From the IMG/VR virus record IMGVR_UViG_3300013121_000030, positions 64,001-128,000 of that record: DNA of 64,000 nt; one strand, 5' to 3'. This DNA is from an uncultured virus (IMG/VR IMGVR_UViG_3300013121_000030). Taxonomy: Duplodnaviria > Heunggongvirae > Uroviricota > Caudoviricetes. Of this stretch, positions 10,107-58,911 are shown in pieces. Within the stretch, counting starts at the first letter, position 1; each line of letters starts with the position of its first letter. Below the pieces are notes generated by a model. It saw nothing but the letters and a program-made list of their open reading frames with translations, was not told the origin of the DNA and did not search any database. The position numbers were made by a program, and so were the translations under genes.

Positions 10107-10556
10107 TTACTCGACGTCCCCCTCAGCATCCTCGGCATCCTCATCCCCCCCAGGGTCCCGAGGATCGAAATCGTCCAGAGGGCCATCGTAGGACACCCCG
10201 TAGCCCTCCACCTTGAGGTGGATCTTGGCGGTCTTCTTGATCCCTGACCACCATGACACCTCGGGAGCGGTCACGGTGTACGTGAACTCCTCGCCCATGT
10301 TGCGGGTCCCGGCCGGGTAGAGGTAGAGGCCGCCGGGCGTGGTCTCATCTCCCTTGAGAGCGGAGATGATCTGCACCGCCATGTCGTGGCCGCCATTGAT
10401 CTGGCGAGCGTCAGAGATCCCGTTGACGACGGGTCGGCCGGCGAGGATCCCCTTGAGGTCCGCTCCGTGCCCAGACGGATAGCCGTCGTACTGGCGATAG
10501 AGGACCGCGATCTCCGTGTCCCCGGTCTTGATGATGGTGAGGCTTCGTGTTCCCAT
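10107..10556 (-). CDS. Conserved phage hypothetical protein (leaderless)
   Basis: MGTRS...YRQYDGYPSGHG motif common in phage hypotheticals; ATG 6 nt after promoter -10. Confidence 0.7.
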   Translation of the reverse strand: MGTRSLTIIKTGDTEIAVLYRQYDGYPSGHGADLKGILAGRPVVNGISDARQINGGHDMAVQIISALKGDETTPGGLYLYPAGTRNMGEEFTYTVTAPEVSWWSGIKKTAKIHLKVEGYGVSYDGPLDDFDPRDPGGDEDAEDAEGDVE

Positions 10557-10562
10557 GCTCCA

Positions 10563-10590
10563 TGGGTAGCACGCGGACCCCCAGGTTACA
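10563..10590 (-). promoter_or_regulatory. Phage promoter TGTAAC-N16-TACCCA
   Basis: Repeated motif family; ATG 6 nt downstream. Confidence 0.75.
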
Positions 10591-10651
10591 CACAGTCCTG
10601 TGTGCCATATCTCACATAGGTAGCCCAGACTGTCCAATCCTCATAGCAACC

Positions 10652-11485
10652 TCATCTCGTGGTGACTTTTTCTTCAAGGATCGAGAAGATGGTGCCCAGA
10701 AACTGTGGGATCCGCTTGGCCATCTCGGAAGCGGAACCGTGGGAAATGGCGACCAACTCACGTTTTCTCATTCCTGGAACAACTTCCTTGGCTTCCAGTT
10801 TGAAAGTGCCGTCATCCTTCTCTGTGGCGAGGATGGATGCCCGGTAGCTGGATCCTCTGACCAACTGGAAGTTCAAGTCCAGATCGTAACCACGGCTGTA
10901 AATCCCAGCTTCGAGGGATTCAATTCCTGTCAGGGCCGAGGCCCTCCGTTTAGCCTCATTGAGTGCGGATTCAAAAGCTGTGAGAATGAGGGACCGCTCA
11001 TTCTCCCGACGCTTCTCTGCCTGATTTTTTTCGTCCAGGGCCTCCCATCCACCCATTTTTTCCACTTCAGAGAAGACCTCACCCAGGAAGGACTGTGCCA
11101 AAATTTTCCCGATCTTGTTGGCTGAGGGTTTTCCTTTTACGGGATTCTTCCCCAAGACCGTAACTCCTGTGGAGACGTCCTTTGGCATGGAGAGAGAAAC
11201 CGTGGAGGAGACTCCAAGATGATAGGCTGCCACACTAACTCTAACTGAGGTCGCGGGTCTGTGGGCGGATGCAGTGTCGACAGTCGCCCATGCCACAGCT
11301 TGGACACCCTTCGCGGCCAAGGGACTGATGGATTTGTTGGCGGTCTTCAGCAGATCTTCCAGATACTTATTCTGAGAGGAAGTTAGTGCATACGCATTCT
11401 GGATCTCTGGCTGTGCCGCAATCCAGCTACGAGCCACCTTGGAGATGAGGGGTTCAAGTGACATGGTGTTCTCCTTCCTGCTCAC
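10652..11485 (-). CDS. Hypothetical protein, possible head-internal protein
   Basis: 277-aa ORF; basic N-terminal leader SKVARSWIAA. Confidence 0.55.
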   Translation of the reverse strand: MSRKENTMSLEPLISKVARSWIAAQPEIQNAYALTSSQNKYLEDLLKTANKSISPLAAKGVQAVAWATVDTASAHRPATSVRVSVAAYHLGVSSTVSLSMPKDVSTGVTVLGKNPVKGKPSANKIGKILAQSFLGEVFSEVEKMGGWEALDEKNQAEKRRENERSLILTAFESALNEAKRRASALTGIESLEAGIYSRGYDLDLNFQLVRGSSYRASILATEKDDGTFKLEAKEVVPGMRKRELVAISHGSASEMAKRIPQFLGTIFSILEEKVTTR

Positions 11486-16470: not shown

Positions 16471-18162
16471 TCAAGAGGTCTTCCAGAGGAAGACATGTGT
16501 GTCCGAAACCGCCCAAAGAGCAGCCCCGCATGCGAAGAGATCTGCTGCACGGGACGCAATGAGGGGATCCGTGACAATCTTTGTCGCCGGGTGTCCGCGA
16601 TGGTTGAGGAAGATTTCAAGCTTCTCTTCGTGGGGGACGGAGACCGCACATACCCCAGTGTCCAAAACGGCCATGGATGGTTCGTAGGGCACAGGGGTCT
16701 CTTCGGTGCGGAGATCGTAGGCTCCCGAAGAATCAAATCGAAGGACGTGCCTGAAGTATCTCGTCCCCTTTCGAGTGGAGACGAGCAGAACTCCCTTTGA
16801 GGAGAGGGCGCCCAACACTGTGTGGTGTTCGAGTTCCCTCACGATGGCTCGGACAGAGGTGTCCTTGGAGGGGAACACCATGAACAGTGGGGACCCGAAG
16901 GCATTCTGTGTGATCACCCCAGGGTCCATTCGGGTGGCCTGCGGCATGACGGTGGAAAAACTGTGAGCCGTCAAGAACACCCGATTGTTGAGGCACGTCC
17001 CACGAATCTCAGTGATGCTCTCCCCCATCCGAGCGAATATTCTCCCATCCGCAGACATGAGGGATTGGGCCGCGATTTGCGTTGTGACTTGACGGCTGCC
17101 ATCCAAATCCTCTCCGGTGAGATTTCCTTCGGCATCCAAGGAAAGTAGGATTCTCCCCTGGACATCCAAGACAGCACATGGGCCCTGTGGGGCAGGTCGG
17201 CTCTTCCCGCCGTCAATCCACAGTTTGTTCTGTCCCAAGACCACATGTCGTTGGGGGGAGTCCGCATACAAAATCTTCCGAATCTCTTCTGAGGTTGTCA
17301 GAACAGCAACTTCACGGAGGTTCGTAGCATGAATGAGGATGGGCTGGAGGAGGATGGGTGCTCCAGACATGGACGCTGGGGGCTCCAACCTCTTCCCAGA
17401 CACAAAGATAGCCTTCATCCAGTCCATGTAGGCCGATGGGACATCGGACATGGGGAAGCAAGCTGGCGGGAGCTTGGTTGCGGGGTCAAAGATCGAGATC
17501 CCCAACTGCATCCTGGTCAGCAAATCCTTCCCACAGGGATGTTGGCCCTGGTAGGGGTGGATCCCAATCAGGAGTTTGCACACCAACACCGCAAACGAGA
17601 ACCAGTCGGATCCCTCAGTCCACTTCCCATGAGCAATGGGATCCATGATGACTTCGGCGATAGCCCGAGCCGGAAAGTTTGGGGTCTGGTAGGAATCCGT
17701 GTCAATGAACCACGGACTCACAAAATCAGGACCCACGAGGATGTTTCCCTCATTCAGGTCCACGATCAAAGTCTGAGCTTTGTGGATCCTCTCGATGACC
17801 TCTCGACACTTGAGGATCAGGTCGTGGATCATGGGGTTGGTGATGGCCTCACGCCGCCGAAATCCCTTTGTGAAGAGAGGGCTCAGCGGCGTCGACGAAT
17901 CCACAAAACGAAAGGTGTGCCCTACATAGCAGGACTTCTGAGAATCGCCGAAGAGGGGCTCCTCGGGCAAGATAACCCGCGGATCCCGGATTGCGGCCAA
18001 CTCCCGAATCTTTGGGATGGGGACGACACGCTGGGGATCGTGATAGATTTTGATGCCGTGCGTGCGTGAAACCCGGAAGATGGAACCCTCGCCGCCCTGT
18101 GCTACAAAATCCTTGGTGGTATCCACATTGTAGGTGGAGGATGCCGTCCAGTAGCGTGTCAT
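16471..18162 (-). CDS. Ser/Thr protein kinase, YegI / TerY-associated type
   Basis: AQGGEGSIF, IKIYH, IVDLNEGNILV, FIDTDSYQ, DWFSFAVL, GIHPYQG motifs. Confidence 0.88.
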   Translation of the reverse strand: MTRYWTASSTYNVDTTKDFVAQGGEGSIFRVSRTHGIKIYHDPQRVVPIPKIRELAAIRDPRVILPEEPLFGDSQKSCYVGHTFRFVDSSTPLSPLFTKGFRRREAITNPMIHDLILKCREVIERIHKAQTLIVDLNEGNILVGPDFVSPWFIDTDSYQTPNFPARAIAEVIMDPIAHGKWTEGSDWFSFAVLVCKLLIGIHPYQGQHPCGKDLLTRMQLGISIFDPATKLPPACFPMSDVPSAYMDWMKAIFVSGKRLEPPASMSGAPILLQPILIHATNLREVAVLTTSEEIRKILYADSPQRHVVLGQNKLWIDGGKSRPAPQGPCAVLDVQGRILLSLDAEGNLTGEDLDGSRQVTTQIAAQSLMSADGRIFARMGESITEIRGTCLNNRVFLTAHSFSTVMPQATRMDPGVITQNAFGSPLFMVFPSKDTSVRAIVRELEHHTVLGALSSKGVLLVSTRKGTRYFRHVLRFDSSGAYDLRTEETPVPYEPSMAVLDTGVCAVSVPHEEKLEIFLNHRGHPATKIVTDPLIASRAADLFACGAALWAVSDTHVFLWKTS

Positions 18163-19040
18163 AGCCCGAGCTTCCTCTTGGTCTCCTGGAGATAGAACTC
18201 TTCCAGGGTGGGGGCCTCTTCAGGGGCAATGAAGAGATAGGACCCGGCCAAATCGTCCGTATGGGTTTGCGCAATGCACACCTTCCGATAGGCAGCCAGG
18301 AGGGGCAGCCACGGCTTGCGAAGGTGTAGATGACTGGAAAATCCCTCCACAAGGTGGTCCACCAAAACCTTGGGGTCGACCCCTCGGAAGGTTTCCAGCC
18401 CATCCGAGAATACTGCGGCGAAGTTGTATTCCTCTGGTCCCCAGGTCTCATCGACGAAGGGAGCAATGTCTCGCTCCTCGCTGTCCAACTCAGTTTGCCC
18501 CGAGAACCTACGGACCTTGTCCTTGAGGGGTGTGGGACCAAAGGTGTCCTGGTAAGGATTACCTTCCCCCATGAAGTAGGGGATGTATGGGGGCTGATTG
18601 GAAGGGGCCGAAATCTGGTGAATCTCGAACGTCACTCCTTCAAGTGAGATCTTTCCTCGGACCCACACCCCGTCCCCACACCCACGGAGACGAAAGCCCT
18701 GGGAGTCGAAGGTAAGAGCCAGGAGCGTACAAAGCTCAGACGTTGTTGGGAGGCCAAGAGCTGCGCGGACCTGAGTAACCTGCGAATGGGCTTTGGTGAA
18801 GAGGGAAATGGAATCCTTGCTCCACGAATCAGGGTCCCCATCCATCATTTTGGCCACGGTGCTCACCCATAGCCTGGACCCAATGTCTGTGAACGTCCCA
18901 GACGAGCACCCGTCCGAGACGATGGCGAGACCCACAGGAGGCTTCTCGGGATCCAAGGTCCCCGCGAAGGAGAAAGCATAGTCTTCACAAACACGGTGAG
19001 TTGAGCCGATTGAGAAGTGGTGTCCAGCGAAGATTTTCAT
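18159..19040 (-). CDS. PP2C-family protein phosphatase (PphC/YegK-like)
   Basis: GSTHRVCEDY, AIVSDGCSS, CTLL, GDG, FSDGL, DDL motifs; stop overlaps kinase start. Confidence 0.85.
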   Translation of the reverse strand: MKIFAGHHFSIGSTHRVCEDYAFSFAGTLDPEKPPVGLAIVSDGCSSGTFTDIGSRLWVSTVAKMMDGDPDSWSKDSISLFTKAHSQVTQVRAALGLPTTSELCTLLALTFDSQGFRLRGCGDGVWVRGKISLEGVTFEIHQISAPSNQPPYIPYFMGEGNPYQDTFGPTPLKDKVRRFSGQTELDSEERDIAPFVDETWGPEEYNFAAVFSDGLETFRGVDPKVLVDHLVEGFSSHLHLRKPWLPLLAAYRKVCIAQTHTDDLAGSYLFIAPEEAPTLEEFYLQETKRKLGL

Positions 19041-19104
19041 GGGATGTTCCAGGGATTCATGGGCCATGGAGGAGATTTCCCCCTCCATGGCCTGGGGTGA
19101 CTGC

Positions 19105-19893
19105 TCAGATCGAGAGCAGCTTGGAGGCGCTGCCGGTCCCCAGAGCCTTGCTCTGGGAGATGGACTGAGAGGCCACGAAATGGCCGATCTTCGCCATGGT
19201 GGCGGGAGACGCATCTCCGGCGGCAATGTAGTTGTCGATCCCCACCGACCCCTTGTAGTTGTCGAGGTAGGACGAAGTGCTTGTGGAGGGGTCGACGTTG
19301 ACCCCCACGAGCACGGACTGGAGGGACTCCAGCACCCGAATCTCGGGGTTCAGCTTGGCTGCCTTGGCAGAGCTGAGTGCTGTCTGAGCACCCTGCATGT
19401 TCTCGCGGGAAGCGTTTTCCTCTCCATCGGTCAAGACGAAGAGGACCGCATTGACCAGGAAGCCCTTCTCCGTCAAGGACTTCCCGTAAGCGAGGGTGGC
19501 TGAGCAAGCATCCACAATCGCGTCGTTGAGGGCCGTACATCCATAGGGAGCGATGGCGCCGGCGTAGTCTCCGGAGGTCACATCCATCAACTCCTTGAAG
19601 CCGAAGGTCTCCTTCACGCGATCTGCGAAGGTAACCATACGGACCATCATGTTCGCTGCCTGAGGGGAACGAGCCGCCCCCTGGATGGCGGACTCGACGG
19701 CCTTCGAGAGGAGGTTGGCAAAACCCGCGACTGAGGAAGAACAATCGACGAGGATGGTGATGAGGGTGTAGGACGTTGCGCCCAGGTTGTTGGGGTCCAT
19801 GGCCGAGAAGACCTTGGACTGCCCGCCGAAACCGAAGTGCGACGGGTCAAACGTGAACGACTGCATCCCACTTGGGATATTGGACGATGCCAT
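19105..19893 (-). other. vWA domain protein (TerY/YegL-like)
   Basis: MIDAS motif DCSSS, GCTALNDA, LTDGEEN. Confidence 0.85.
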
Positions 19894-19913
19894 GGTGATA
19901 CCTGTGTTGAGGG

Positions 19914-20711
19914 TCAGAGGTTGAAGGTGGTGGAGTTCTCGATGCGGATGCCCTTGCTCCGCAGGGCATCGAAGAAGGAAGCGACGACGGCATCGTAGCC
20001 GGGCACGGGCACGGGCGACGTGCAGTCCTGTAGAACTACGATGCGCTGGAGGAAGGACGTGGGCACGTTGGCGAGGAGGTCCGCCACAGAGTTCTGGAGG
20101 CAGAAGTTGAGGGCCTCGCCAGCCACGACCAGGCAATCCGCCTGCGTGAGCGAGGCGAGGAGATTGCTGTTGATCTGGGTGCGGGGATCCCCAGGATCTG
20201 GCACCACTGCCTGGAAGATGCTGTAGTGCTCCGTCAGCGGATGGTCTCCCTTGACCTCCATCGTGAAGTTGTTCTTGATGGCCGCAGACCACTCCAGAGC
20301 GGCATCCATGAGGCTGGGGTGGATCGACCATCCCCAAGTGCCGATGACGCAGTGCTGGGGCCAAATGGTGTGGGTCTTGCCCGAAGCATCCAGAGCCTTG
20401 AGGTACTTCAGGGCCTTCTGGTAGAGGCCTGGAATGGCCGGCTGCCAAACGCCGTCCTCCACCTCCTTGGCGGTGATCGTCGTGAAAGGAGCCGGGTGAT
20501 CCCCCGCCCCATTCCGCCAAAACACCGGATGGAAGATGGCCCACACGTGGTGGGAATCCGCGGTCATGGTGACGTGGTGGATATTCTTGGCGTTCCGTCG
20601 AATCCAAGCCCCCAAACGAGCCATGTCCTGGTCCGCTCCCGGAACAAAAAGGGAGCCCTTGGGATCGCAGAAATCGTTCTGCGCGTCGATGACAAAGAGG
20701 TGGTTCCTCAT
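19914..20711 (-). CDS. Nicotinamidase / isochorismatase-family cysteine hydrolase (PncA-like)
   Basis: IDAQNDFC..GSLFVPGA, DSH, WPQHC..GTWG, KG....EHYS, AGEALNFC; SD AAGGA. Confidence 0.85.
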   Translation of the reverse strand: MRNHLFVIDAQNDFCDPKGSLFVPGADQDMARLGAWIRRNAKNIHHVTMTADSHHVWAIFHPVFWRNGAGDHPAPFTTITAKEVEDGVWQPAIPGLYQKALKYLKALDASGKTHTIWPQHCVIGTWGWSIHPSLMDAALEWSAAIKNNFTMEVKGDHPLTEHYSIFQAVVPDPGDPRTQINSNLLASLTQADCLVVAGEALNFCLQNSVADLLANVPTSFLQRIVVLQDCTSPVPVPGYDAVVASFFDALRSKGIRIENSTTFNL

Positions 20712-20967
20712 GATTATTTTTCCTTGTGTGTGTTCTGCCCCACAGGATGTGGGGGAGGTAATGTTGCCCCGAAATATACCCCGGGGGAATTATGGGAGGT
20801 ACTCCGCCGGATCTGGAATGATCCCCAATCCTCACGGAGGATCGAATGGCATGTGTGGCCTCAGGTGGAAGCTCCTCGTTTACTGGAAACCCTGTCCACA
20901 TCTCCATGCGACCATTCCGGATCTTGGCTGCATAGGCCCGGCCGCTCTGGTCGCTATCCTTGAGAGG

Positions 20968-23067: not shown

Positions 23068-24167
23068 GTGGACTCGTCGGCCGACAAGGCCGCAACAAAT
23101 CCGTGTCCTTGGATGTTGAAGATAGGCGGGAGAGGGTCACGATGTGAATCTCTCACTGTTCCTGGTGGAGCATAAGGCAACGTTGGAACATTGGGAAGCT
23201 GGACATGGAGGTGAAGGACAGCCTCAGCCCAACGGTGGGTGAACAACATCCGAACCAAGAGGGGCGCATTGAGGCTGGCTTTTTCGAGCCCCGCCAACAG
23301 AATGCTCTTCCCAAGAAGGGCTGTGTAAACAGCATTTGCGCTCGAAAAACCTGGGCCCTTCTTTCGAGGAGAGATGAGAGAGCAGGCGTATCCCGCACGG
23401 ACTGCAATAGACCCGAAGACTTGCTCGGGAATCCCCAACACAGTCCCCGTGAAAAAGTTTCGATAGTGATTCGCAAGGCGGTCAAACAACACGACCGAAG
23501 ATTCTTGCACTGTGGCTGTCCCACAGTCTGTGGTTGAGGAAAAATGTTGGTCCTCAATCACCTGGACAATCTCCTCCAGAAATGCAGGATCACCAACCTC
23601 AAAGGGCATAATCGTGCCATCTGGAAATACCAGTGACTTCTTTTTGAGGGCAGCCAAATCATTGGCGACCACACAATGACACTTGGCCCTCAGACAGACT
23701 CCGTAAGCAGCCTGGAGAGTCTGATCCAGAGAAGAACCTGAAGTCATCTTACACCCAATGAGGTGCATCTTCGGATTGATCCGCCGCATCTCATCAATGA
23801 CATGGGGAGCAAGGATGAATGGAATCAACATCCGTTCACCAACTCCCACAGTGAGCATCTTGCCGTGGAAGGGAGTTTCAGGAATCCAGTTGACGACGGC
23901 GGCTGCCATGACCGCAGCATCGAGAGTGGGAGCCAGCTCCCTACACTTGGCCTGGTAGTCCCAGAACCCATTGTGACGAATGACCTGGACTCGTTCGGGA
24001 GGGACAATTCCTGGGATGTCCGGAATCAGAAAGATGACTTCATGCCCGCGATCCCGAAGCAGCGAGGCAAGGTGCGCTGCCCAGATCCCGCGGGATCGGT
24101 TGCCGACGAGCTTGTTGTCATCCAGCTTCCCGTAGACAGCGCCTGCTGTGATTAGGATTCGAGACAT
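23052..24167 (-). CDS. CoaB-like (phosphopantothenate-cysteine ligase fold) domain fused to class II aldolase-like domain
   Basis: ILITAG...D....N.S.G, MAAAV, LIGCK, VVANDL (CoaB/DFP); C-terminal GSIAVR..LISP, AVLHLH, PYAPPGT, GHG (aldolase II-like). Confidence 0.7.
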   Translation of the reverse strand: MSRILITAGAVYGKLDDNKLVGNRSRGIWAAHLASLLRDRGHEVIFLIPDIPGIVPPERVQVIRHNGFWDYQAKCRELAPTLDAAVMAAAVVNWIPETPFHGKMLTVGVGERMLIPFILAPHVIDEMRRINPKMHLIGCKMTSGSSLDQTLQAAYGVCLRAKCHCVVANDLAALKKKSLVFPDGTIMPFEVGDPAFLEEIVQVIEDQHFSSTTDCGTATVQESSVVLFDRLANHYRNFFTGTVLGIPEQVFGSIAVRAGYACSLISPRKKGPGFSSANAVYTALLGKSILLAGLEKASLNAPLLVRMLFTHRWAEAVLHLHVQLPNVPTLPYAPPGTVRDSHRDPLPPIFNIQGHGFVAALSADESTWPKL

Positions 24168-24173
24168 GGGGTT

Positions 24174-24830
24174 TCATCCTTTGCGGAGAGACTCCGAAAT
24201 TTCCACAGCCACCCGAAGCGGGGCCAAGTTGGCTTGCGAGCCTATCTTCCACCAGATCTCCTGAAGGGGGAATCCCAGGAGAGAAGTGGGATCTTTGATC
24301 TCCCCCAGATTTGTGACCCACGACTGGACCACTGGCTCCGATATTCGGAGCGACCCGGCGCAATCGGAAGGATTGCACGTCTGGATGTACTCCATCGCCT
24401 CCCACGGCGAGATCTTCCGCATCTTCATCACTTCCGTGAAGACGAAAGATTGCCCTCCAACCCGCACCAACTCTCCTCCGCTCGCATTGCTGAGGATTGT
24501 GACTCCAGTGGACGACATCACCTCCTTTCCTGACATGGCGAGGATGTTGCTCAACATCCCATCAGGAGTCGGCTCCTTGTGGAGAGGCTTGCCTTCCACA
24601 GAGATCACCTGGTCGCAGGTGAGAATGGCATCCTCGTCGCCGAAACGAGCCACAAGTTCGAGCCCCTTCATGAGGCTCAGGAACTTGGGGCCCTCAACCA
24701 CAGGATCCTTGAGGAGGACATCCTCATAGGCTCGCTCATCGATTCGGGCACCTTCTGCCCTCCAAGGATCCAGGAAGATCTGCCTGAAAAAGTTGATGCG
24801 GTACTTGGATGTGGTTCCGAGGATGTACAT
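24174..24830 (-). CDS. maf: Maf-family nucleotide pyrophosphatase
   Basis: ILGTTSKYR, IDER, TCDQVI, K.P, MSGK, CAGS, LLGFPL Maf motifs. Confidence 0.8.
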   Translation of the reverse strand: MYILGTTSKYRINFFRQIFLDPWRAEGARIDERAYEDVLLKDPVVEGPKFLSLMKGLELVARFGDEDAILTCDQVISVEGKPLHKEPTPDGMLSNILAMSGKEVMSSTGVTILSNASGGELVRVGGQSFVFTEVMKMRKISPWEAMEYIQTCNPSDCAGSLRISEPVVQSWVTNLGEIKDPTSLLGFPLQEIWWKIGSQANLAPLRVAVEISESLRKG

Positions 24831-24883
24831 GAGTTCTCAGGTCCCCCGTGATTACGGGGGAGCATGGACGATAAGGTGGCTGG

Positions 24884-25031
24884 GAATAGATCCCCGCCTT
24901 CGCGGGGGAAAGTCCCTCTCGACAGAGACAGGGGCACCACGGGGGGGAAGATCCCCGCGTTCGCGGGGGAAGGCATGCTCAGAAATCACACTAACCCTGT
25001 TACCCAGGAAGATCCCGAACGCGAGGGAAAG
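24884..25031 (-). CRISPR. Cas-less type I-E-like CRISPR mini-array (2 full repeats, 1 degenerate, 2 spacers of 32 nt)
   Basis: Repeats CTTTCCCCCGCGAAGGCGGGGATCTATTC (24884-24912), CCTTCCCCCGCGAACGCGGGGATCTTCCC (24945-24973) and degenerate CTTTCCCTCGCGTTCGGGATCTTCCT (25006-25031); exact 61-bp period; CCCCGCG/GCGGGGAT core shared with the E. coli I-E repeat. Confidence 0.72.
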
Positions 25032-25032
25032 C

Positions 25033-25407
25033 TCAGGACAGAACCGCAGACCCCACCGCAAGGTCCACGAGACGCTTGTGGGGGTCCAGGAGGCGGACGG
25101 ACTTGCCGTCCACACGGACGGTGAAGCTCTCATGGAGTTCGTGGGTGATGATCTGCTGGATGGCCAACCACGCCGTGAACACCACGGACTCGATGGAGGC
25201 GGTGGAGGCCACGAACCACTTGCGCCCATAGCCAATTCCGTATTCAGAAGAGTTGGCATCCGGCCGCTCGAACGAGCACTGGATGTTCCATCCCACCTGC
25301 TCATCATCGGAAGCAGGCTGGATGCGCCATTGGAAGCGCCACTCCTCGAATCGAGTGGCGCGCATTTCGATCCCAAAAAGGATCTCATGGAGTTCGTTCT
25401 GGATCAT
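25033..25407 (-). CDS. Conserved phage hypothetical protein
   Basis: GRKW......SVV.TA..A......HE..E.F.......DPH pattern. Confidence 0.7.
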   Translation of the reverse strand: MIQNELHEILFGIEMRATRFEEWRFQWRIQPASDDEQVGWNIQCSFERPDANSSEYGIGYGRKWFVASTASIESVVFTAWLAIQQIITHELHESFTVRVDGKSVRLLDPHKRLVDLAVGSAVLS

Positions 25408-25420
25408 AGTATCCCTTCAT

Positions 25421-25879
25421 TTAGCGGAGAGCCCGCCGCATGAACACCAGCAACTGATTCTCATCTAGGTGCAGGAGAATCTTTAGGGCATTCTGGTGGG
25501 CCCGAAGCTTCTTAGCCTTGCGGAAGACCGCCCGCATCTTTCCCATCCTCAACGTCGCGGCCCAGTTTGATGCTACAGCCTCATGGATGAGGAGGAGGAT
25601 GCGGGTGTTGGGCACCCCAAAGTAACGGAGCGCAACCACTTCCGCCGCCAATGTCTGAAGTTCACGGGCAGGAGCAAGCCGAGCAAACTTGCCCAGACAT
25701 GTCTGAGCAGCATCTGCTGACCACGAATCTGAAGAGAGCGACACTCCGCCAGCCACAAGATGGAGCCCCTCATGCAGAATAGACTCTGCAAGATTTCTCC
25801 CTTCCGTATCCATGAAGGTGTAGGTAGAGATCCCCCGATCCTCCATGAACTCCTCCAGTTTCTCTTCGGTCGCCCACAT
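25421..25879 (-). CDS. Hypothetical protein (leaderless)
   Basis: ATG 6 nt after -10; contains HEGLH (HExxH). Confidence 0.6.
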   Translation of the reverse strand: MWATEEKLEEFMEDRGISTYTFMDTEGRNLAESILHEGLHLVAGGVSLSSDSWSADAAQTCLGKFARLAPARELQTLAAEVVALRYFGVPNTRILLLIHEAVASNWAATLRMGKMRAVFRKAKKLRAHQNALKILLHLDENQLLVFMRRALR

Positions 25880-25885
25880 ACTTCT

Positions 25886-25913
25886 AGGGTAGCACCTTGA
25901 TTCTCATGTTACA
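25886..25913 (-). promoter_or_regulatory. Phage promoter TGTAAC-N16-TACCCT
   Basis: Motif family member. Confidence 0.78.
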
Positions 25914-25949
25914 CAAAGAAAAGGAGGGCTGGATATCCAGCCCTCCTTT
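25914..25949 (-). terminator. Intrinsic terminator after DUF932 gene
   Basis: Perfect palindrome aaaggagggctggat/atccagccctccttt with T-tract on minus strand. Confidence 0.75.
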
Positions 25950-25956
25950 GGGGAGG

Positions 25957-26940
25957 TTACACCATGGAAAGGAGGAGCGTCCGGGCGCGGGCGTTGAGGT
26001 CGGCGCCGCTCCCAAGAAGGACGGACTCGGTCCGGGAGTTCCCGCCCTTGACGTTCTTCACGGTCGCCTCGTGGGAGGTGAAGAACGTGAGGGCGTTGAA
26101 GGCGCCGTAGAAGGTGTTCTCGACTCCCTTCTGGCCCACCGCACCGAACCGAAGCCGGTTCAGGAGCGCGTGGCGGTTCAGCGCCCGCGTCTGGGCGGCC
26201 CCCTCCTCCATGGGGATCGGGAAGAGCTTGAGAAGGAAATTCTCCCACTCGTCAGGGGTCATCCCCCGATTGGCGAGCTTGGTAAGCTCCTCCTCGTCCC
26301 GCTTGAAGCGGGTCATTGCCTCGCCGAGGATGCGGGCCGCCTCCTTCATACGGTCGTCCTTGGACGACGTGTGGCGGATGGAGATTAGGCCGCCCTCACC
26401 ACGAGCCGCGTTCCAGGTGTTCTTGCAGACCACGCGCGTGGTCACAGGCCCGACATGCATGGCGTCCTTGCCATTGTGACTGTTAGTGGCCCAGATGTAG
26501 GGAATATGACGATCCCCGAGAATCGGCTCGAAGCCGTCCTGGAGGCGCCCCAGCGCCCACACGATCTGGCCGTCGCGGAGACTGCCCGCGGTCTCGAAGA
26601 CGACCTTGCCATCCGCCACATCGGCCACGTCCTGGCAGAAGTTGAACAGCTCCTCGTTCTGGATCGGCTGGTACAGCCGACCCGACATCCCCAGCACCTT
26701 GCCGTCGTCCTCCCGGACGATGGCCCGGCCGACGTTCTGGGGGACCCGGATCTCCTGGTCACCATGGCGGATCGTCAGGTCCCGCATGACCACCCGGCTC
26801 TTGAGCTGGGCGAGCCGCATCGCGGTCTCAGCATCCACCGGCTCATCGCCAGCGGAGACCCCCAGACCGTGCCAGGGAACCGCCCCAGCGTACATCATCT
26901 TCGCAACCCCGTTGTTTCCGATTTCGAGTTCGTGTGCCAT
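25957..26940 (-). CDS. DUF932 family phage/plasmid protein (leaderless)
   Basis: MAHE, PWHGLG, Y.PIQN, FETAGSL..G..VW, NSHNG, RVVCKNT, IRHT motifs. Confidence 0.9.
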   Translation of the reverse strand: MAHELEIGNNGVAKMMYAGAVPWHGLGVSAGDEPVDAETAMRLAQLKSRVVMRDLTIRHGDQEIRVPQNVGRAIVREDDGKVLGMSGRLYQPIQNEELFNFCQDVADVADGKVVFETAGSLRDGQIVWALGRLQDGFEPILGDRHIPYIWATNSHNGKDAMHVGPVTTRVVCKNTWNAARGEGGLISIRHTSSKDDRMKEAARILGEAMTRFKRDEEELTKLANRGMTPDEWENFLLKLFPIPMEEGAAQTRALNRHALLNRLRFGAVGQKGVENTFYGAFNALTFFTSHEATVKNVKGGNSRTESVLLGSGADLNARARTLLLSMV

Positions 26941-32625: not shown

Positions 32626-32710
32626 GCTCAGGTGATTGGAATTGGTAGACATGCCCGACTCAAAATCGGGTGCCCTTACGGGCGTGAGGGTTCGACTCCC
32701 TTCCTGAGCA
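32626..32710 (+). tRNA. tRNA-Leu(CAA)
   Basis: Cloverleaf with long variable arm; anticodon loop CT-CAA-AA; T-loop TTCGACT. Confidence 0.92.
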
Positions 32711-37168: not shown

Positions 37169-37268
37169 TGGGGTTGGTGAGGTGTGCGGCCTTGAACCTC
37201 TTACACCAATGCCTCCCCACGGCAAATGGGGATCGTGGGAGTTGAACACCCTTCCTCCTCACCAACAG

Positions 37269-37341
37269 TGCTCCAGGCAGGGATCGAACCTGCGACGCCC
37301 TCCTCTTCAGGGAGGCGCTCTGCCAACTGAGCTACCGGAGC
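37269..37341 (-). tRNA. tRNA-Phe(GAA)
   Basis: Cloverleaf; anticodon loop CT-GAA-GA. Confidence 0.92.
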
Positions 37342-37391
37342 TTGAGAGGTTCAGCCGGTAGCCTCTGGAGCTACCGGCTACCGAAAGCCGG

Positions 37392-37464
37392 GGTGGATGA
37401 CGGGTCTCGAACCCGCACCTCGGGAGTCACAATCCCGCACGCTGCCAGTTGCGCCACATCCACC
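37392..37464 (-). tRNA. tRNA-His(GTG)
   Basis: Anticodon loop TT-GTG-AC; encoded G-1 and C73. Confidence 0.9.
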
Positions 37465-37580
37465 GTAAGGATGGAAGGCTCCCGCCGAGGGGAGCGCAAT
37501 ATGGAGCTGGAGCAGAGACATGACGGGAACCTTCTTTCACACGTTGGTATTGGCTGTCAAGGGGGGTGGATGGAATTTTG

Positions 37581-37654
37581 TGATCGTGGCAGGAATCGAA
37601 CCTGCGGCCTCAAGATTCGGAATCTTGCGCTCTATCCAACTGAGCTACACGATC
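37581..37654 (-). tRNA. tRNA-Arg(CCG)
   Basis: Anticodon loop TT-CCG-AA; canonical D and T arms. Confidence 0.92.
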
Positions 37655-38411
37655 GAATGGACTGGATCTGTGTCGAACAAGTCTCCAGATACCCAGGAAC
37701 AATGTCCACGAACTTGGACTTGGGGAGCCCCATGAGAATGGGGACGAATGAGTGGGTAGCGATGATGACCTGTTTGGAGTCAGGGATTTGACTGAGGACC
37801 CTCCAAAAATCAATCTGGTTGGGGATGTCTCGGCAGTTCTCAGGCTCGTCGAGCAGGACCGTGAATCCGCGGGTCTTCTCCGCTGAGAGAACATGGCATT
37901 CTCTCCAGTTAGCATGCTCCTTTTGGAGGTATTCCGGGACCTTGCCCCCAGGGAACCTCACATTTATCTTTTCCCATTTCGCAAGAGCCGTAAACATGCG
38001 GGAGACTTTGGAATTGGTTTGTTCCCCCGCCGAAGACTTCCTCTGGAAAATGGAGCGAATTCCCTCATCAAGGAAGTCGTCCTCAAAAGCTACCCCTTTT
38101 CCAAAGAGGCCTACTTCCTCCAGTGAGTCCACATAGCCTGTTTTCGCGCCATCATGGTGGACACGGAGTCCTCGTGGAGTCTCAAAGTACCTGAGGCTCT
38201 CTCTGGTGAGAGAAGGGACCATTCCCTGCTCACACATGAGCACACGGGCCAGATTTTTGAGGATCGAGCTTTTTCCGGACCCATTGGGTCCCCAAAGGAT
38301 GTTGAGTCCTGGCTGGAAGACAAACTCTTGTCTCCCTTGAAGACACGCGATCTTCTCCCAAAAATCCACACACGTCGTATGTGGATCGGTGATTTCGAGT
38401 TTGGAAATCAT
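37632..38411 (-). CDS. ABC/AAA-type ATPase
   Basis: Walker A GPNGSGKS, signature SAGE, Walker B LLDEPE, IIATHS. Confidence 0.85.
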   Translation of the reverse strand: MISKLEITDPHTTCVDFWEKIACLQGRQEFVFQPGLNILWGPNGSGKSSILKNLARVLMCEQGMVPSLTRESLRYFETPRGLRVHHDGAKTGYVDSLEEVGLFGKGVAFEDDFLDEGIRSIFQRKSSAGEQTNSKVSRMFTALAKWEKINVRFPGGKVPEYLQKEHANWRECHVLSAEKTRGFTVLLDEPENCRDIPNQIDFWRVLSQIPDSKQVIIATHSFVPILMGLPKSKFVDIVPGYLETCSTQIQSIRSCSSVG

Positions 38412-38415
38412 GGAG

Positions 38416-38489
38416 TGCCCCTAGCAGGACTCGAACCTGCGACCTACGGTTTAGGAAACCGTCGCTCTATCCACCTGAGCTATAGGAGC
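38416..38489 (-). tRNA. tRNA-Arg(CCT)
   Basis: Anticodon loop TT-CCT-AA. Confidence 0.92.
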
Positions 38490-38591
38490 AGATGCTCTGG
38501 CAACCCTGTTCTGTATTCCCCACTACAGTCTTCCCTTGGGACTTGACTGAGGAACAGGGCCCTTACCTCGGGTTGGACCCCCCGGCCAGAG

Positions 38592-38837
38592 CTAAATTCG
38601 GGATGGGATGTTGTTGACCGCGTGGGTGATTTCCCCAAAGGGGAAGAAGAGCTTCACCAGAAAGCCTGGCTTGTTGTTCAAACGCCAATCAACGAATTTG
38701 ATGCCCTCAAACTCACCTTCGAGGTCGATGTTTCGACCAGTGAAGACAATCCCCACGACTGTCCCCACTTCTTTCTCTCCCAAAACAGGGACATGTGGAC
38801 GACCGATGTGTCGGCGAGCACGAGTGAGCTTGGACAT
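38592..38837 (-). CDS. Hypothetical protein
   Basis: ORF downstream of promoter 38853-38880; SD AGGA. Confidence 0.5.
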   Translation of the reverse strand: MSKLTRARRHIGRPHVPVLGEKEVGTVVGIVFTGRNIDLEGEFEGIKFVDWRLNNKPGFLVKLFFPFGEITHAVNNIPSRI

Positions 38838-38852
38838 GGGGTTGGTTCCTGG

Positions 38853-38880
38853 AGGATAGCACGTGGAGTCGGAACTTACA
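38853..38880 (-). promoter_or_regulatory. Phage promoter TGTAAG-N16-TATCCT
   Basis: Motif family member. Confidence 0.72.
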
Positions 38881-38924
38881 CAAGTTTCTTCGTGGTCTCA
38901 GGGCGCTTGAAGCGCGGTAATGTC

Positions 38925-39014
38925 TGGCGGAGGAGGTGGGATTTGAACCCACGGGGGACTTTCATCCCCGTCCGATTTCAAGTCGGGTGCCTTAAACCGC
39001 TCGGCCACTCCTCC
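38925..39014 (-). tRNA. tRNA-Ser(TGA)
   Basis: Long variable arm; anticodon loop CT-TGA-AA; encoded CCA. Confidence 0.93.
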
Positions 39015-39019
39015 AGTCT

Positions 39020-39093
39020 TGGACAAGGTGGGACTTGAACCCACGACCCGCCGGTTATGAGCCGGCTGCTCTAACCGACTGAGCTACTCGTCC
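39020..39093 (-). tRNA. tRNA with CAT anticodon (Ile2 or elongator Met)
   Basis: Anticodon loop CT-CAT-AA; paired 1:72, so not an initiator. Confidence 0.88.
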
Positions 39094-54175: not shown

Positions 54176-55174
54176 ATGCGACGGCACGCCTTTCAGACCA
54201 AACTCTCGCTCTTCCACCTCCTGAGCCGGTTCAAGTCGATTGACGAAATCATTCGAGCCTCAGCGCTGGAGGGATATCTAGGTATCCCCCCCAACTCTAT
54301 CATCAACCGTGGGTGGAAGGACCTCCCACTGGAGATTGATGGAGTCAACCCCAACATGTTGACCCCAGGCCCCAGTGGAGTTGAGAGAAGCCTCAGAATT
54401 GCCATTGCCCAACTCCTCCGCAAGTATTACCCAAAGGTCTCGGGCGATAATTTGGAGTCCTACCTGCCCGACTTCAGCCTCGCCAACATGCTCTATCGAA
54501 AGGAAGGAAAGCCACTTCCGTACAAAGTTGGGGAGTGGGCCAAAAGAGAAATCCCACTCTTTACGGTTGGCCATCTCGTCCAAGCGCTGAAGAAATACAT
54601 CCTCAAATCTCCAGGCATGGTCTCCAATAGTTGGCGTGCTCTCGTGGAGAAACGTCACCCCACGTCTCAGCCATTCTTGCAGGAGAATCCCTCTCGGGAG
54701 CAAGAGGATGAGCGCGACGAATCGGTGGACTTCGAGAAGACGGTGCGGACCAAAGGCTTGACTCGCTACGAAGAGAAAGTAGCTCCTCCGGTCCTAAACC
54801 GCCTCCATACGATCATCGAGCGCAACCCCGCCTTGGGAGGAGAAATCCGGGAATACATTAAGAGCCACCCACCAAAAGCTCTGTATCCCAAGGAAAAGAA
54901 CATCTGGATCCGTGCCATGATTGGGATCTTGCTGGAAGGTGAGACCCTCAGTGAAATCCGATCACAGTTCCAGCAGGAAGGCATCAGTGCTCAGCAGTTG
55001 AGCAATCTAATCTCAGCATCTAAGCTCGTGGGATTCGCCTCGAATCCCGAGTTTTTGGATGGGCTCCAAAAAATCTTGGGGGCTGGAGCAGAGTCTCTCG
55101 GTGTGGGCTACTCCAGGTTAGCCCGCAAACGCTCTAGGAATCCAGAGCGTCAATCACCTCTCCGTCGTGCATGA
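54176..55174 (+). CDS. Hypothetical protein with possible C-terminal HTH
   Basis: 332 aa; GETLSEIR...ISAQQLSNLI. Confidence 0.5.
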   Translation: MRRHAFQTKLSLFHLLSRFKSIDEIIRASALEGYLGIPPNSIINRGWKDLPLEIDGVNPNMLTPGPSGVERSLRIAIAQLLRKYYPKVSGDNLESYLPDFSLANMLYRKEGKPLPYKVGEWAKREIPLFTVGHLVQALKKYILKSPGMVSNSWRALVEKRHPTSQPFLQENPSREQEDERDESVDFEKTVRTKGLTRYEEKVAPPVLNRLHTIIERNPALGGEIREYIKSHPPKALYPKEKNIWIRAMIGILLEGETLSEIRSQFQQEGISAQQLSNLISASKLVGFASNPEFLDGLQKILGAGAESLGVGYSRLARKRSRNPERQSPLRRA

Positions 55175-55934
55175 ACGTCTCCTCAAGAGACGGAACAAGG
55201 TACTGATTCCTCAAGGTCGTGGGCTCGTGGCCCACGGCCTTTGCCGTTTCTTCTAGGGCCTTCTGGAATTCTTTCTTGAGGATCTCGTCCTTTTTCTTTC
55301 GCTCCTTGGGCAGCTTGGGTCCCTTGGACCGGATCTTGGCGAGCCTCTCTTTCATGGATTCGTTGGCGTGGAATCCGCGAATGTCCTTGGCCGTGATCCC
55401 AAACTCCTTGAGGTAGGCGTTTACTTCCTCTGCGGAGGCGTCCACGATCTCATCGTCGGGGTCCTTGCCCTTGACGGCTTTCTTGAGGGCGGAGAGGAGA
55501 CGAGCATCCGTGACGTCCTTCTCTTGCTCCACCCCAGACTTGCCCACGTACTCCAGAGTGGCCTTGCCCTTGCTGAAGCGCACATGGTCGACCCTCCACC
55601 CCGTGACTCCAAAATGGCCCTTGTCAGCGGACTCCGAGTTCCCCACGCGCTCGTAGGTGTGGTCCATGAGGGCCACCGCCAAGGCCACCGAACACGTCTC
55701 AGGATCGTCGCAGGAGAGGTCCTCGTACACCTGGTCTCGCATCTCATCGATGGAGTGCCGAAGCTCCTCCAGCCTCTCTGCTTTCTCCTGGTGGCGACGT
55801 TGGACCTGGCGTGGGCCGTACTCGTAGATCACCCGTTCTTCTCCATCCTTGGTCTTGACCTTCTTTTTGCTCTTGTATTTCGCCAAGAACCTACGACAGA
55901 CCTTAGCAGCAATCCGAGCGAGTTCGCCTTCCAT
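55134..55934 (-). CDS. DNA topoisomerase IB (bacterial/poxviral type)
   Basis: Catalytic residues in ERVGN (R), YVGKSG (K), TAKDIR (R), VGH (H), LRNQY (Y). Confidence 0.88.
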   Translation of the reverse strand: MEGELARIAAKVCRRFLAKYKSKKKVKTKDGEERVIYEYGPRQVQRRHQEKAERLEELRHSIDEMRDQVYEDLSCDDPETCSVALAVALMDHTYERVGNSESADKGHFGVTGWRVDHVRFSKGKATLEYVGKSGVEQEKDVTDARLLSALKKAVKGKDPDDEIVDASAEEVNAYLKEFGITAKDIRGFHANESMKERLAKIRSKGPKLPKERKKKDEILKKEFQKALEETAKAVGHEPTTLRNQYLVPSLEETFMHDGEVIDALDS

Positions 55935-56786
55935 ACGGAAGACTCCAGGACATCGATAATTCACCGTTCCCACCAAAAAACTCTGACTTGACGCGGATGC
56001 TCCTCACCCGGTAGGGTGTCCGAGCTGTCTCCTGGAGGACTTCCTCCAGCGCAGAACGTCCACTCATGACTCTAACCTCTGCAATCCAGCGTAGGACGAC
56101 TCCCCGAAGGGGAGTCTGTCAGACCGTGGAGGGAGTTCATGGAGTGGGTGGGGACGTCCAGGGAAACCTGGAGAGGGTTGACGACGCCTCCGAGACAGCT
56201 CTTCGAGGACACTCCCCTGAGTCTCTTCAGGGGAGAGAAGACAAGGGTGCAATGAAGACCTGGAGCCTACAGGGAGTTCTCTCCCCATGGTTCCTGGACA
56301 ACCGGAGGACCTCCCAATCTTGGGATCCACAAATTGAGACTGTGGATCTTGGTCGACTCCTTCAAGGCGGGGGTCTCAAGGAGACCCCCTCTCCCTCCTT
56401 CTCTGGATCGAAGGGGGAGGGAGAGGTTAATGAATTCAATGTTAATGAATTGAATTCAGAGTCTTGTGTCTTCCCAATTCAAAATGAACAAACTGATAAC
56501 AACACTGAAAACGAACTACTTCAACTACTTCTCGTTCAAAACCTACTAACACCTGAGCTACTCGACACACTGAAACTCCTCGACACACTGATGAAGCTAC
56601 AAGAGCTAGTAGACCTGATGAACAACATGGATGAGATGACAAGGAACTATGAGTCCTGGGTGTCCTTTGTGGGAAGTGGGGAAGTGTTCCCCTGGGAGGT
56701 GGAGTTGAGATAACCTGGAGTAAGTTTCTCCTTGGGAGGAGAAATTCCTCTTATGGGTTCTCTCCTCTTGGGAGGAGAAGAACTTC

Positions 56787-57988: not shown

Positions 57989-58911
57989 TGTCCTACGAGA
58001 ACCTTCGCGTGCTAGAGGGGGACGATGAACAAATCCGTCTCTTTTTGAGAGGGATCGAGGAGGGTGTTGTGGATAGTGGGGGAGTCGTCATGCGAATGAC
58101 TCCCGAGATGTTTTTTTCGGTGACGAGAGTGGACCCAATTTTTGGTGCTACGTCCAAACCGTTGCGACGGACGGTTTACATTTTGGACGGAGACCCGGGG
58201 GAAGACATCTTGAAGACCACCGAAGAAGCCCTGGTGGTTATGGGCTCAACCCCCAAGTGGGGGGGGAAGCTCCCAAAGTCCTTTGTGTTGACATTTTCCC
58301 GGGGACGGCCCTGGGAAACCACCGAGCGAGCTATAACTTTTTGTCAAAATGAGGCGGTCCGAAGAGGGTTCGTGTTTCCTCAGCCTCTCGCCCAAGCACT
58401 GGTGGCACTCGTGGGGCCTCAACCTGGAGTTCTCTGGTTCGAGGTCCTAAAATTGTCTCATTTGGTGGGATCCTCCAAGGCAGTTGAGCCCACGTTCCTT
58501 CGAGAGTCCGCAGTAGGACTAGGTGGAGCGGAAGCGGCCCCCGCGATTGTTGAGGCGTTGAGCAAGAAATCCCGATTTGCGATGGCCAAGGCGTTGGTGG
58601 ACCTCCAACGGAGTGCAGAATCAAAGCCCCTTTTGGCACTTGTGGGATATTTACGGTCTACGCTGCTCACGTGGGTCGATGTGTCCAGGTATCGAGACCG
58701 CGGGTGGGGGTCAGAGGACATTGCATCGCAGATGGGAATGCATCCTTATCGCTACAAGATGCAGATAATCCCAATGCTGATGGGGTGGTCGACTCAAGAG
58801 CTGTCAGATCTTATGGAGGATCTGGGTTCAGTGGAGTTTGGGTGTAAAGAGGGAGGAGCTGTGTCACCATTGGTGATGCTTGAGGCTGTCCTTTTGTTGG
58901 TGTGTCAGTGA
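57988..58911 (+). CDS. holA: DNA polymerase III delta subunit-like protein
   Basis: LV.LVG......E..KL, ...[11 protein letters not shown], ..K.G....LE.L HolA pattern. Confidence 0.7.

Follow-up and report, generated by a model that had tools for sequence, protein, structure and literature searches.

Can a CRISPR array (short palindromic repeats, clustered and regularly interspaced) arise in a phage genome from a palindrome that merely resembles a CRISPR repeat? The question is raised by a small cluster of hairpin repeats in an uncultured virus (IMG/VR IMGVR_UViG_3300013121_000030). The window that we analyzed spans 64,000 nucleotides (bases 64001-128000) of a virus record 234,244 bp long and rated about 90% complete; positions given below refer to this window unless another sequence is named. 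Two minus-strand genes, maf and an open reading frame (ORF) of 124 amino acids, leave a gap of 202 nt (24831-25032) between them, and the repeats lie in it. A first-pass annotation had described them as a Cas-less mini-array of the type I-E kind. By architecture, and probably by origin too, the locus is a small CRISPR-type array. The explanation that we prefer, and hold with about even confidence, is an orphan and partly decayed “neo-CRISPR” mini-array that was seeded on a palindrome mimicking I-E repeats and is co-transcribed with the maf operon. Judged by their sequence, the repeats do not appear to have been taken from a recognizable host CRISPR array.

The array is oriented on the minus strand, as is the operon. 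Read in this direction, its order is R1, spacer 1, R2, spacer 2, R3, 22 nt, a further hairpin (H4), 10 nt and the maf ATG. R2 (CCTTCCCCCGCGAACGCGGGGATCTTCCC; 24945-24973, minus strand) and R3 (CTTTCCCCCGCGAAGGCGGGGATCTATTC; 24884-24912, minus strand) are intact 29-nt repeats. Each folds as 5 nt, a 6-bp stem with a 4-nt loop and 8 nt (-13.1 and -14.0 kcal/mol; z -2.6 and -2.8), and R3 starts exactly 61 nt past the start of R2. The two are identical at 24 of 29 positions; among the last eight bases of R3, three differ from those of R2. R1 (CTTTCCCTCGCGTTCGGGATCTTCCT; 25006-25031, minus strand) is a decayed first repeat of 26 nt with a 3-nt internal deletion. It begins 1 nt past the stop codon of the upstream 124-aa ORF and has lost the canonical hairpin, and its eight 3' bases (ATCTTCCT) are the same as those of R2 at seven positions. 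The repeats enclose two unique spacers of 32 nt, namely spacer 1 (GGGTAACAGGGTTAGTGTGATTTCTGAGCATG; 24974-25005, minus strand) and spacer 2 (CCCCGTGGTGCCCCTGTCTCTGTCGAGAGGGA; 24913-24944, minus strand), in which a small internal hairpin is possible. H4 (24841-24861, minus strand) is an 8-bp hairpin of other sequence (-15.1 kcal/mol, z -3.2). It lies off register in the maf leader, 47-48 nt after R3 with 22 nt intervening, and ends 10 nt before the maf ATG. By their flanks, all four phage hairpins share one orientation. These single hairpins are unusually stable, whereas the whole 222-nt RNA is not (z -1.27).

The first-pass annotation had the letters and the coordinates of both spacers right, as well as the fourth, off-period hairpin and the degenerate state of the 5'-most minus-strand unit with its 3' handle kept. 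Its claim of three units at an exact 61-bp period is correct for R2 to R3; the distance from R1 to R2 is 58 nt, because of the 3-nt deletion inside R1. Since the spacer on the side of R1 still measures 32 nt, both periods were presumably 61 nt before the deletion.

The repeat geometry of R2 and R3 and the 32-nt spacers at a 61-nt period fit the layout of a type I-E array, and the true I-E array of the bacterial genome G050 has repeats of the same layout. The label “I-E-like” is thus borne out by geometry, orientation and the two unique 32-nt spacers, and it fails in that neither I-E cas genes nor an I-E array with this repeat turned up in the searches reported below. An Rfam scan of 24000-26000 (E<=10) returned 11 weak matches, none of them CRISPR. 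This test was powerless, because the true I-E array of G050 gave no CRISPR match either (8 weak matches).

The most trivial explanation would be a chance similarity of GC-rich hairpins or a hidden coding sequence. Two long ORFs do cross the repeats, one at 24793-25443 (plus strand, 216 aa) and one at 24852-25388 (minus strand, 178 aa). Shuffling speaks against chance: with at most one mismatch the core CCCCGCGNNNGCGGGGAT occurs twice in the window, as compared to 0.00 expected, and 0 of 100 shuffles contained any. The intact units form a repeat family in the window (23 nt, 96%). In the 234,244-bp genome the core motif is confined to the array locus, and a search of the whole phage genome for the 29-nt unit, allowing up to seven substitutions, returned R2 and R3 only. 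Coding is contradicted by a related phage. Between 25312 and 25342, 7 of 10 listed differences lie at codon position 3 when read in the frame of the 124-aa ORF, and not in those of the overlapping ORFs; the array segment as such is replaced wholesale. Both observations indicate that the array region is non-coding. We regard chance similarity or hidden coding as extremely unlikely.

Is the array transcribed? No promoter-like or terminator-like site was found inside 24831-25032. The array hairpins carry no T-run and are therefore not intrinsic terminators. The nearest transcription stop upstream is a terminator-like 13-bp hairpin with a T-rich tail (25920-25949, minus strand). From the lack of internal signals and the position of this hairpin (25949-25920 in reading direction), the array is most simply taken to be co-transcribed with the operon. 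The array probably sits in one transcript with a 152-aa ORF, the 124-aa ORF upstream of it (25033-25407, minus strand; phrog_1540, function unknown) and maf, the downstream gene of the operon (218 aa; 24174-24830, minus strand; Pfam Maf 2.2e-19). Two genes upstream of the array lies a gene for a DUF932 protein (25957-26940, minus strand; 1.6e-44; phrog_1221); the DUF932 family is often found with anti-defence genes on plasmids.

The relatives of the repeat were sought in bacterial genomes and metagenomes. When one genome per species was scanned with the pattern CCCCGCGNNNGCGGGGATCT, at least 120 loci in many phyla matched. Among the matches listed, GTCAT precedes 105 of 135, and neighbor pairs within 150 nt are inverted in 53 cases and direct in 12. 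The inverted pairs are spaced by 33-115 nt and in 0 of 53 cases by 61 nt. Such mostly inverted neighbors are the habit of REP/REPIN elements. In JGI metagenomes the phage-specific form TTCCCCCGCGAANGCGGGGATC was present at 19 loci, and an inverted copy follows within about 70 nt after 15 of these 19 matches when judged by eye (8 by a strict regular expression). In genome G001 (2.3 Mb) a sub-family flanked by GCTTT...ATCTT has 69 copies, which form inverted pairs in 20 of the 20 places fetched, most of these places having been picked for paired hits. R2 and R3 share these flanks with one G001 copy and are identical to it at 26 of 29 positions, as compared to 16-17 of 29 for the true I-E repeat of G050; the G001 copy is a best-of-many match found with a phage-derived pattern. 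Another genome (G004, 1.5 Mb) holds 121 exact copies of a GTCAT sister form. A Y1 transposase (RAYT/IS200 family) is present in four of five bacterial genomes that carry the family.

By these likenesses the phage repeats belong to a widespread bacterial family of REP/REPIN-like palindromes that mimic I-E repeats. The mimicked layout consists of 5 nt, a CCCCGCG...GCGGGG hairpin and then ATC.... No published name for this family was found in the literature searched by sequence strings. The only other viral contig in IMG/VR with CCCCCGCGAANGCGGGGATCT is 13,845 bp long. It has a single copy (L003:6524-6544), just upstream of a gene and beside another hairpin, which may be a solitary repeat-like unit.

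Could the locus be a plain cluster of REP-like palindromes without any link to CRISPR? We consider this a serious, if on balance unlikely, alternative. The repeats would be intercistronic RNA or DNA structures whose hairpins came from a host, perhaps along with host-like genes such as maf. They could act as a barrier to 3'-5' decay or as a processing site, H4 could occlude the ribosome-binding site of maf, and the 61-nt spacing would be a family property for some other reason or a coincidence. The 26/29 identity to a dispersed REPIN-like copy argues for this explanation, as do the inverted copies beside the metagenome matches, none of which lies in an array, and the Y1 transposase in four of the five bacterial carriers. 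It also accords with the intact stems and drifting flanks of the repeats, with the end of H4 10 nt before the maf start and with the failure to find a protospacer or a cognate array in the databases listed below. In the phage itself, R2 and R3 resemble REP/REPIN elements in being short palindromes with family-specific flanks. The units are, however, confined to a single locus in 234 kb and not dispersed; all of them are direct, without an inverted partner; and a search of the phage for a Y1 transposase gave 0 matches. Two successive unique spacers of 32 nt are unlike the spacing of the inverted pairs, and hairpins without a T-run do not serve as intrinsic terminators. Finally, the bacterial relatives include doublets with a sharp 28-nt duplication boundary, for which there is no known REP/RAYT explanation.

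These doublets are the most interesting observation of our analysis and go beyond the original finding. Among the matches listed in the genome scan, 3 of the 12 direct neighbor pairs are exactly 61 nt apart. When 401 sampled Pseudomonadota genomes were searched for copies paired at 39-69 nt, four of them matched. Of 18 direct pairs in G004 (gap 20-50), 14 keep a spacing of exactly 61 nt; they are spread over about a dozen loci and their inner sequences differ, and one locus has three repeats with two different inserts. The other 4 of the 18 direct pairs come from 33-nt tandems. G004 contains several such 33-nt-period tandem arrays of a 24-nt unit plus 9 nt in at least three copies (C58:3010-3094, C72:52441-52525 and C98:4290-4407).

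Doublets with the unit GTCAT-CCCCGCG-NNN-GCGGGG-ATC were found in G004 (e.g. L178-L186), G050 (L187, L188), G086 (L189), L060 and L075. In 12 doublets from five genomes the two copies of a doublet are identical in 12/12 cases at every position from -5 to +3. At positions +4 to +7 they agree in 11, 11, 9 and 10 of 12, and at +8 in only 2 of 12. The letters at +4 to +7 vary between loci yet agree within a locus. This identity profile defines a duplicated unit of 28 nt (5+16+7) and an insert of 33 nt; among the 12 loci fetched, 6 have an exact duplication of 28 nt, the modal length. The ruler of I-E spacer integration in E. coli is 28+33. Judged by this footprint, the bacterial doublets look like natural off-target I-E spacer integration. 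One of the genomes that bear them, G050, contains a complete I-E operon followed by its 61-nt array.

The phage array can be read as the same phenomenon, since it shares the unit layout, the orientation and the period with the bacterial doublets, and does so twice over. The first-pass annotation had named a match to a REP family instead of I-E repeats as the result that would speak against an array. Such a match exists in part, as the identities above show (26/29 as compared to 16-17/29). The family that is matched shows the 28+33 footprint itself, however, so the link to CRISPR is not removed. It is recast, from a captured host array to an array seeded on a repeat mimic.

In this neo-CRISPR scenario, Cas1-Cas2 of the I-E type would have inserted two spacers at the palindrome, treating it as a pseudo-repeat and duplicating the unit each time. 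Since neither Cas1 nor a Y1 transposase was found in the phage, the enzyme that made the array would have come from the host or from a donor bacterium. Later decay would have cost R1 its hairpin and let the last eight bases of R3 diverge. If Cas6e and Cascade of a host I-E system accept the hairpin, one canonical guide of 61 nt would be expected, running from the eight bases ATCTTCCC through spacer 2 to the R3 hairpin. Spacer 1 might end up in a second guide, which would be poorly processed. Cutting by Cas6e might also process the maf mRNA, as the first-pass annotation proposed. What the data establish is the anatomy of the locus, its departure from chance, the kinship with the palindrome family and the 28+33 footprint of the bacterial relatives; that an integrase made the array, that it is transcribed and that any of its RNA is loaded onto Cascade we infer.

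Several observations weigh against the neo-CRISPR scenario. The repeats of an I-E array are near-identical and the degenerate copy is leader-distal. Here, R2 and R3 differ at 5 of 29 positions, and the degenerate repeat is R1, which lies upstream, on the leader side. This is the reverse of normal array polarity; in normal arrays the leader-side repeat is the template for integration. Divergence at 5/29 positions also blurs the duplication boundaries in the phage copies. None of the 120 genome loci listed is an I-E array with the phage repeat, and no locus among them has three repeats at a 61-nt period. Likewise, no array with this repeat was seen at the 19 metagenome loci (0/19) or in the 401 sampled Pseudomonadota genomes (0), and the lone viral match is solitary. 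The first-pass annotation had proposed spacer targets among other phages, and the viral databases do not bear this out. Neither spacer has a protospacer in IMG/VR when searched with 23-nt patterns that leave every sixth base free and are otherwise exact, and that miss diverged targets, and neither gave a significant match in INPHARED or PLSDB. Within the phage, no second copy of either spacer, or of the 22 nt after R3, was found beyond chance (best 14 nt, E 0.015). Two short contigs of a relative from one RNA run both fall outside the array and carry no information on its expression.

The bacterial side has weak points of its own. Cas1 was detected in only one of the five doublet-bearing genomes (G050), and Cas6e in none of the five, with a model that also missed the E. 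coli control. The shortage of Cas1 is a real weakness; it is not a refutation, because the doublet-bearing genomes are mostly incomplete metagenome-assembled genomes. Two inserts of G004 were searched: neither had a second copy in G004 (0/2) and neither matched IMG/VR (0/2), so the reading of the bacterial inserts as acquired spacers is tentative.

The related phage mentioned above informs on how the array changes. Its flanks are 81-94% identical to ours (contigs from two sequencing runs), and it keeps H4 and R3. In place of the 121 nt (24911-25031) that comprise spacer 2, R2, spacer 1 and R1 it has 82 other letters; the replaced stretch runs from the junction of R3 and spacer 2 to the stop codon of the upstream ORF. 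As exactly this segment is replaced, the leader-side part of the array is its variable part. A variable upstream part is the outcome that would be expected of array turnover, and REP clusters vary between strains too. Relatives of the phage, searched for by way of the Maf and the 124-aa proteins, were not found in IMG/VR, and the 124-aa protein had none in JGI metagenomes. A look-up of the Maf protein for host prediction returned mixed phyla and indicated no host.

Does the array still do anything? The decay is uneven. R1 has kept its last eight bases and lost its hairpin, while R3 has kept its hairpin and its last eight bases have diverged. By our own count, differences affect about 3/29 of the positions needed for a guide as compared to about 11/29 of those not needed. 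The numbers are small, and this pattern no more than hints that guide RNAs were, or are, under selection. Use of the array RNAs by a host Cascade is possible. We nevertheless regard a present-day function as guide or decoy as rather doubtful.

A related alternative is an RNA anti-CRISPR or a regulatory array of the CRISPR RNA-like kind (Racr/Cracr). Its RNA would soak up Cas6e, Cas5 and Cas7 of a host I-E system, or it would guide Cascade by partial pairing to a host cas promoter or to a safeguarding toxin and so disarm I-E immunity. A nearby DUF932 gene and small ORFs of unknown function are typical company of such elements. The outer repeats of our array are degenerate but keep what is relevant to a guide, as this alternative would have it, and in the tested example a repeat with a 1-nt deletion was poorly processed (10.1101/2024.10.29.618823). 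The spacers of that tested I-E example measure 21-24 nt, in contrast to 32 nt here. The repeats match no known host array, however, and no acr gene turned up, although no acr-specific search was made. On this evidence the Racr/Cracr alternative is quite unlikely.

Could the array instead supply the phage's own Cas proteins? A greedy ORF call over the whole genome yielded 275 ORFs, of which 225 were scanned with Pfam (>=80-90 aa); the scan covered neither the shorter ORFs nor five of the listed window ORFs. For the ORFs scanned, the earlier claim that the window contains no cas genes holds. “Cas-less” is not true of the phage, which encodes cas6, cas3, cas8-like, cas7 and cas5 genes and two further arrays elsewhere. 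The cas operon lies outside the window at about 217.5-224.1 kb of the genome (L132:14501-19520, L133:531-2122). It comprises cas6/cmx6, cas3, a cmx8-like (cas8-like) gene, cas7/DevR and cas5/DevS as identified with Pfam, several of them with scores below the curated cut-offs; a 188-aa ORF for a GyrB-N-like ATPase stands between cas3 and the cmx8-like gene. From these domains the system is a type I-B or “MYXAN”-like effector. Its two arrays have a 36-nt repeat in common, one with 12-13 repeats at about 201.6-202.5 kb (L131:17583-18474) and one with 4 repeats at about 228.7-229.0 kb (L133:6709-6978). They run in opposite orientations and have spacers of 35-41 nt, and the 36-nt repeat was not found in other IMG/VR contigs.

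In a scenario in which the mini-array provides guides for this I-B/MYXAN-like effector, the phage Cas6 would do the processing. The presence of the effector genes, without adaptation genes, fits such a scenario. The repeats do not: the 36-nt repeat is unrelated to the 29-nt unit, which with up to seven substitutions is present in the genome as R2 and R3 only, and the 61-nt period fits I-E and not the system of the phage. The phage cas genes and the 36-nt arrays are 110-140 kb away from the mini-array. We regard guides for the phage's own effector as very unlikely. Genes for an I-E machinery were not seen in the phage either. Pfam detected no Cse1, Cse2, Cas7e, Cas5e, Cas6e, Cas1 or Cas2 among the 225 ORFs, the adaptation genes cas1, cas2 and cas4 were not found, and a six-frame search of the phage gave 0 matches for Cas1 and 0 for Cas6e, the Cas6e model being the one that missed the E. 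coli control.

Other genes of the phage were recorded along the way. A class II ribonucleotide reductase of 1843 aa extends from window position 58880 to the window end at 64000 and on to genome position 128411 (L155:880-6408) and is split by two insertions that are intein-like, with a LAGLIDADG domain. Positions 32626-32710 and 37268-39093 contain seven tRNA genes (Leu, Phe, His, Arg x2, Ser, Met), six of them in one cluster. The catalytic core of a eukaryotic-type topoisomerase IB is encoded at 55137-55976 (minus strand; PF01028, 1.2e-27). Three adjoining ORFs (16471-20907, minus strand) have weak kinase-like, PP2C phosphatase and vWA-domain matches, which suggests a signalling-type module. 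Elsewhere in the phage (L126:4166-5170; L125:8654-12780; L131:876-3676, 10113-10814; L124:7811-11926) the cargo includes a Volactin-family actin homologue (6.5e-69), Ro60/TROVE beside RlaP, a serpin, an ADP-ribosylglycohydrolase, Thg1 and a 1372-aa Rhs/SpvB/TcdB-like protein. Tandem copies of a 42-nt repeat (4.5 copies, 97% matches) reach to the right end of the record (L133:12057-12244).

What would follow from the neo-CRISPR scenario? In a wider proposal, which is tentative and to which we give somewhat less than an even chance, REP-like palindromes would be natural landing pads for I-E Cas1-Cas2. Integration at these sites would have left dispersed 28+33 one-spacer arrays at many chromosomal sites in bacteria and would have written two spacers into an infecting or resident jumbo phage. 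If true, this would be the birth of CRISPR arrays in the wild, with host immune memory placed inside a viral genome, which the phage might exploit as guides or decoys. Phage-borne mini-arrays and repeat decoys are already known; what differs here is the origin of the repeats. REP-like palindromes would provide a testable route to new CRISPR arrays, and many “orphan mini-arrays” would be accounted for. Programs that find arrays and those that annotate REPs would then be dealing with the same objects. A phage with an I-B-like system of its own would, in addition, carry an RNA able to engage an I-E system encoded by its host.

How does the locus compare with known systems? The CRISPR-Cas systems of huge phages reportedly described by Al-Shayeb et al. 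in 2020 share with our phage a genome of more than 200 kb, an own type I effector, short arrays and the lack of adaptation genes. The likeness is to the 36-nt-repeat system of the phage and not to the mini-array.

Viral mini-arrays have one or two spacers and no cas genes nearby, their repeats are identical to those of host arrays and most of their spacers match related viruses (PMC11656645). The locus resembles them in having one or two spacers between CRISPR-type repeats without adjacent cas genes, so that a host Cas machinery is presumed. It differs in that our searches returned neither a matching array nor a protospacer, the repeats differ from each other at 5/29 positions and their nearest relatives are REP-like. 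Solitary repeat decoys in phages are likewise established (PMC10651486).

The I-E “Cracr arrays” of phages have two or three spacers and degenerate repeats (10.1101/2024.10.29.618823). Common to the Cracr/Racr elements and our locus are degenerate repeat-like RNAs in phage genomes, sometimes with two or three I-E-type spacers. Those elements were detected because they resemble host CreA/CreR RNAs, and their short spacers match cas promoters; the spacers of the phage array measure 32 nt and have no known target. With REP/REPIN elements and their RAYTs (PMC3116915, PMC3337134), the locus shares a short GC-rich palindrome with conserved flanks. Its bacterial relatives have tens to more than 100 copies, mostly in inverted pairs, in genomes with a Y1 transposase. 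The phage copies, in contrast, sit at a single locus, are direct, keep the I-E period with unique spacers and were found without a Y1 transposase in the phage.

A further comparison is with new arrays that form by off-target I-E integration (Nivala et al. 2018, as cited in 10.1101/148544). Going by that citation, those arrays were obtained by inducing Cas1-Cas2 in E. coli, and natural cases were called circumstantial; here, REP-like palindromes are involved at many loci of wild genomes and in one phage, and the integrase is inferred. The boundaries of the duplicated unit are clear in the bacterial relatives and blurred in the phage by the 5/29 differences, and the phage period fits. Common to both is a repeat-like target, lying outside any CRISPR locus, that is duplicated around a spacer according to the I-E ruler, with 28 + 33 nt in the bacterial relatives.

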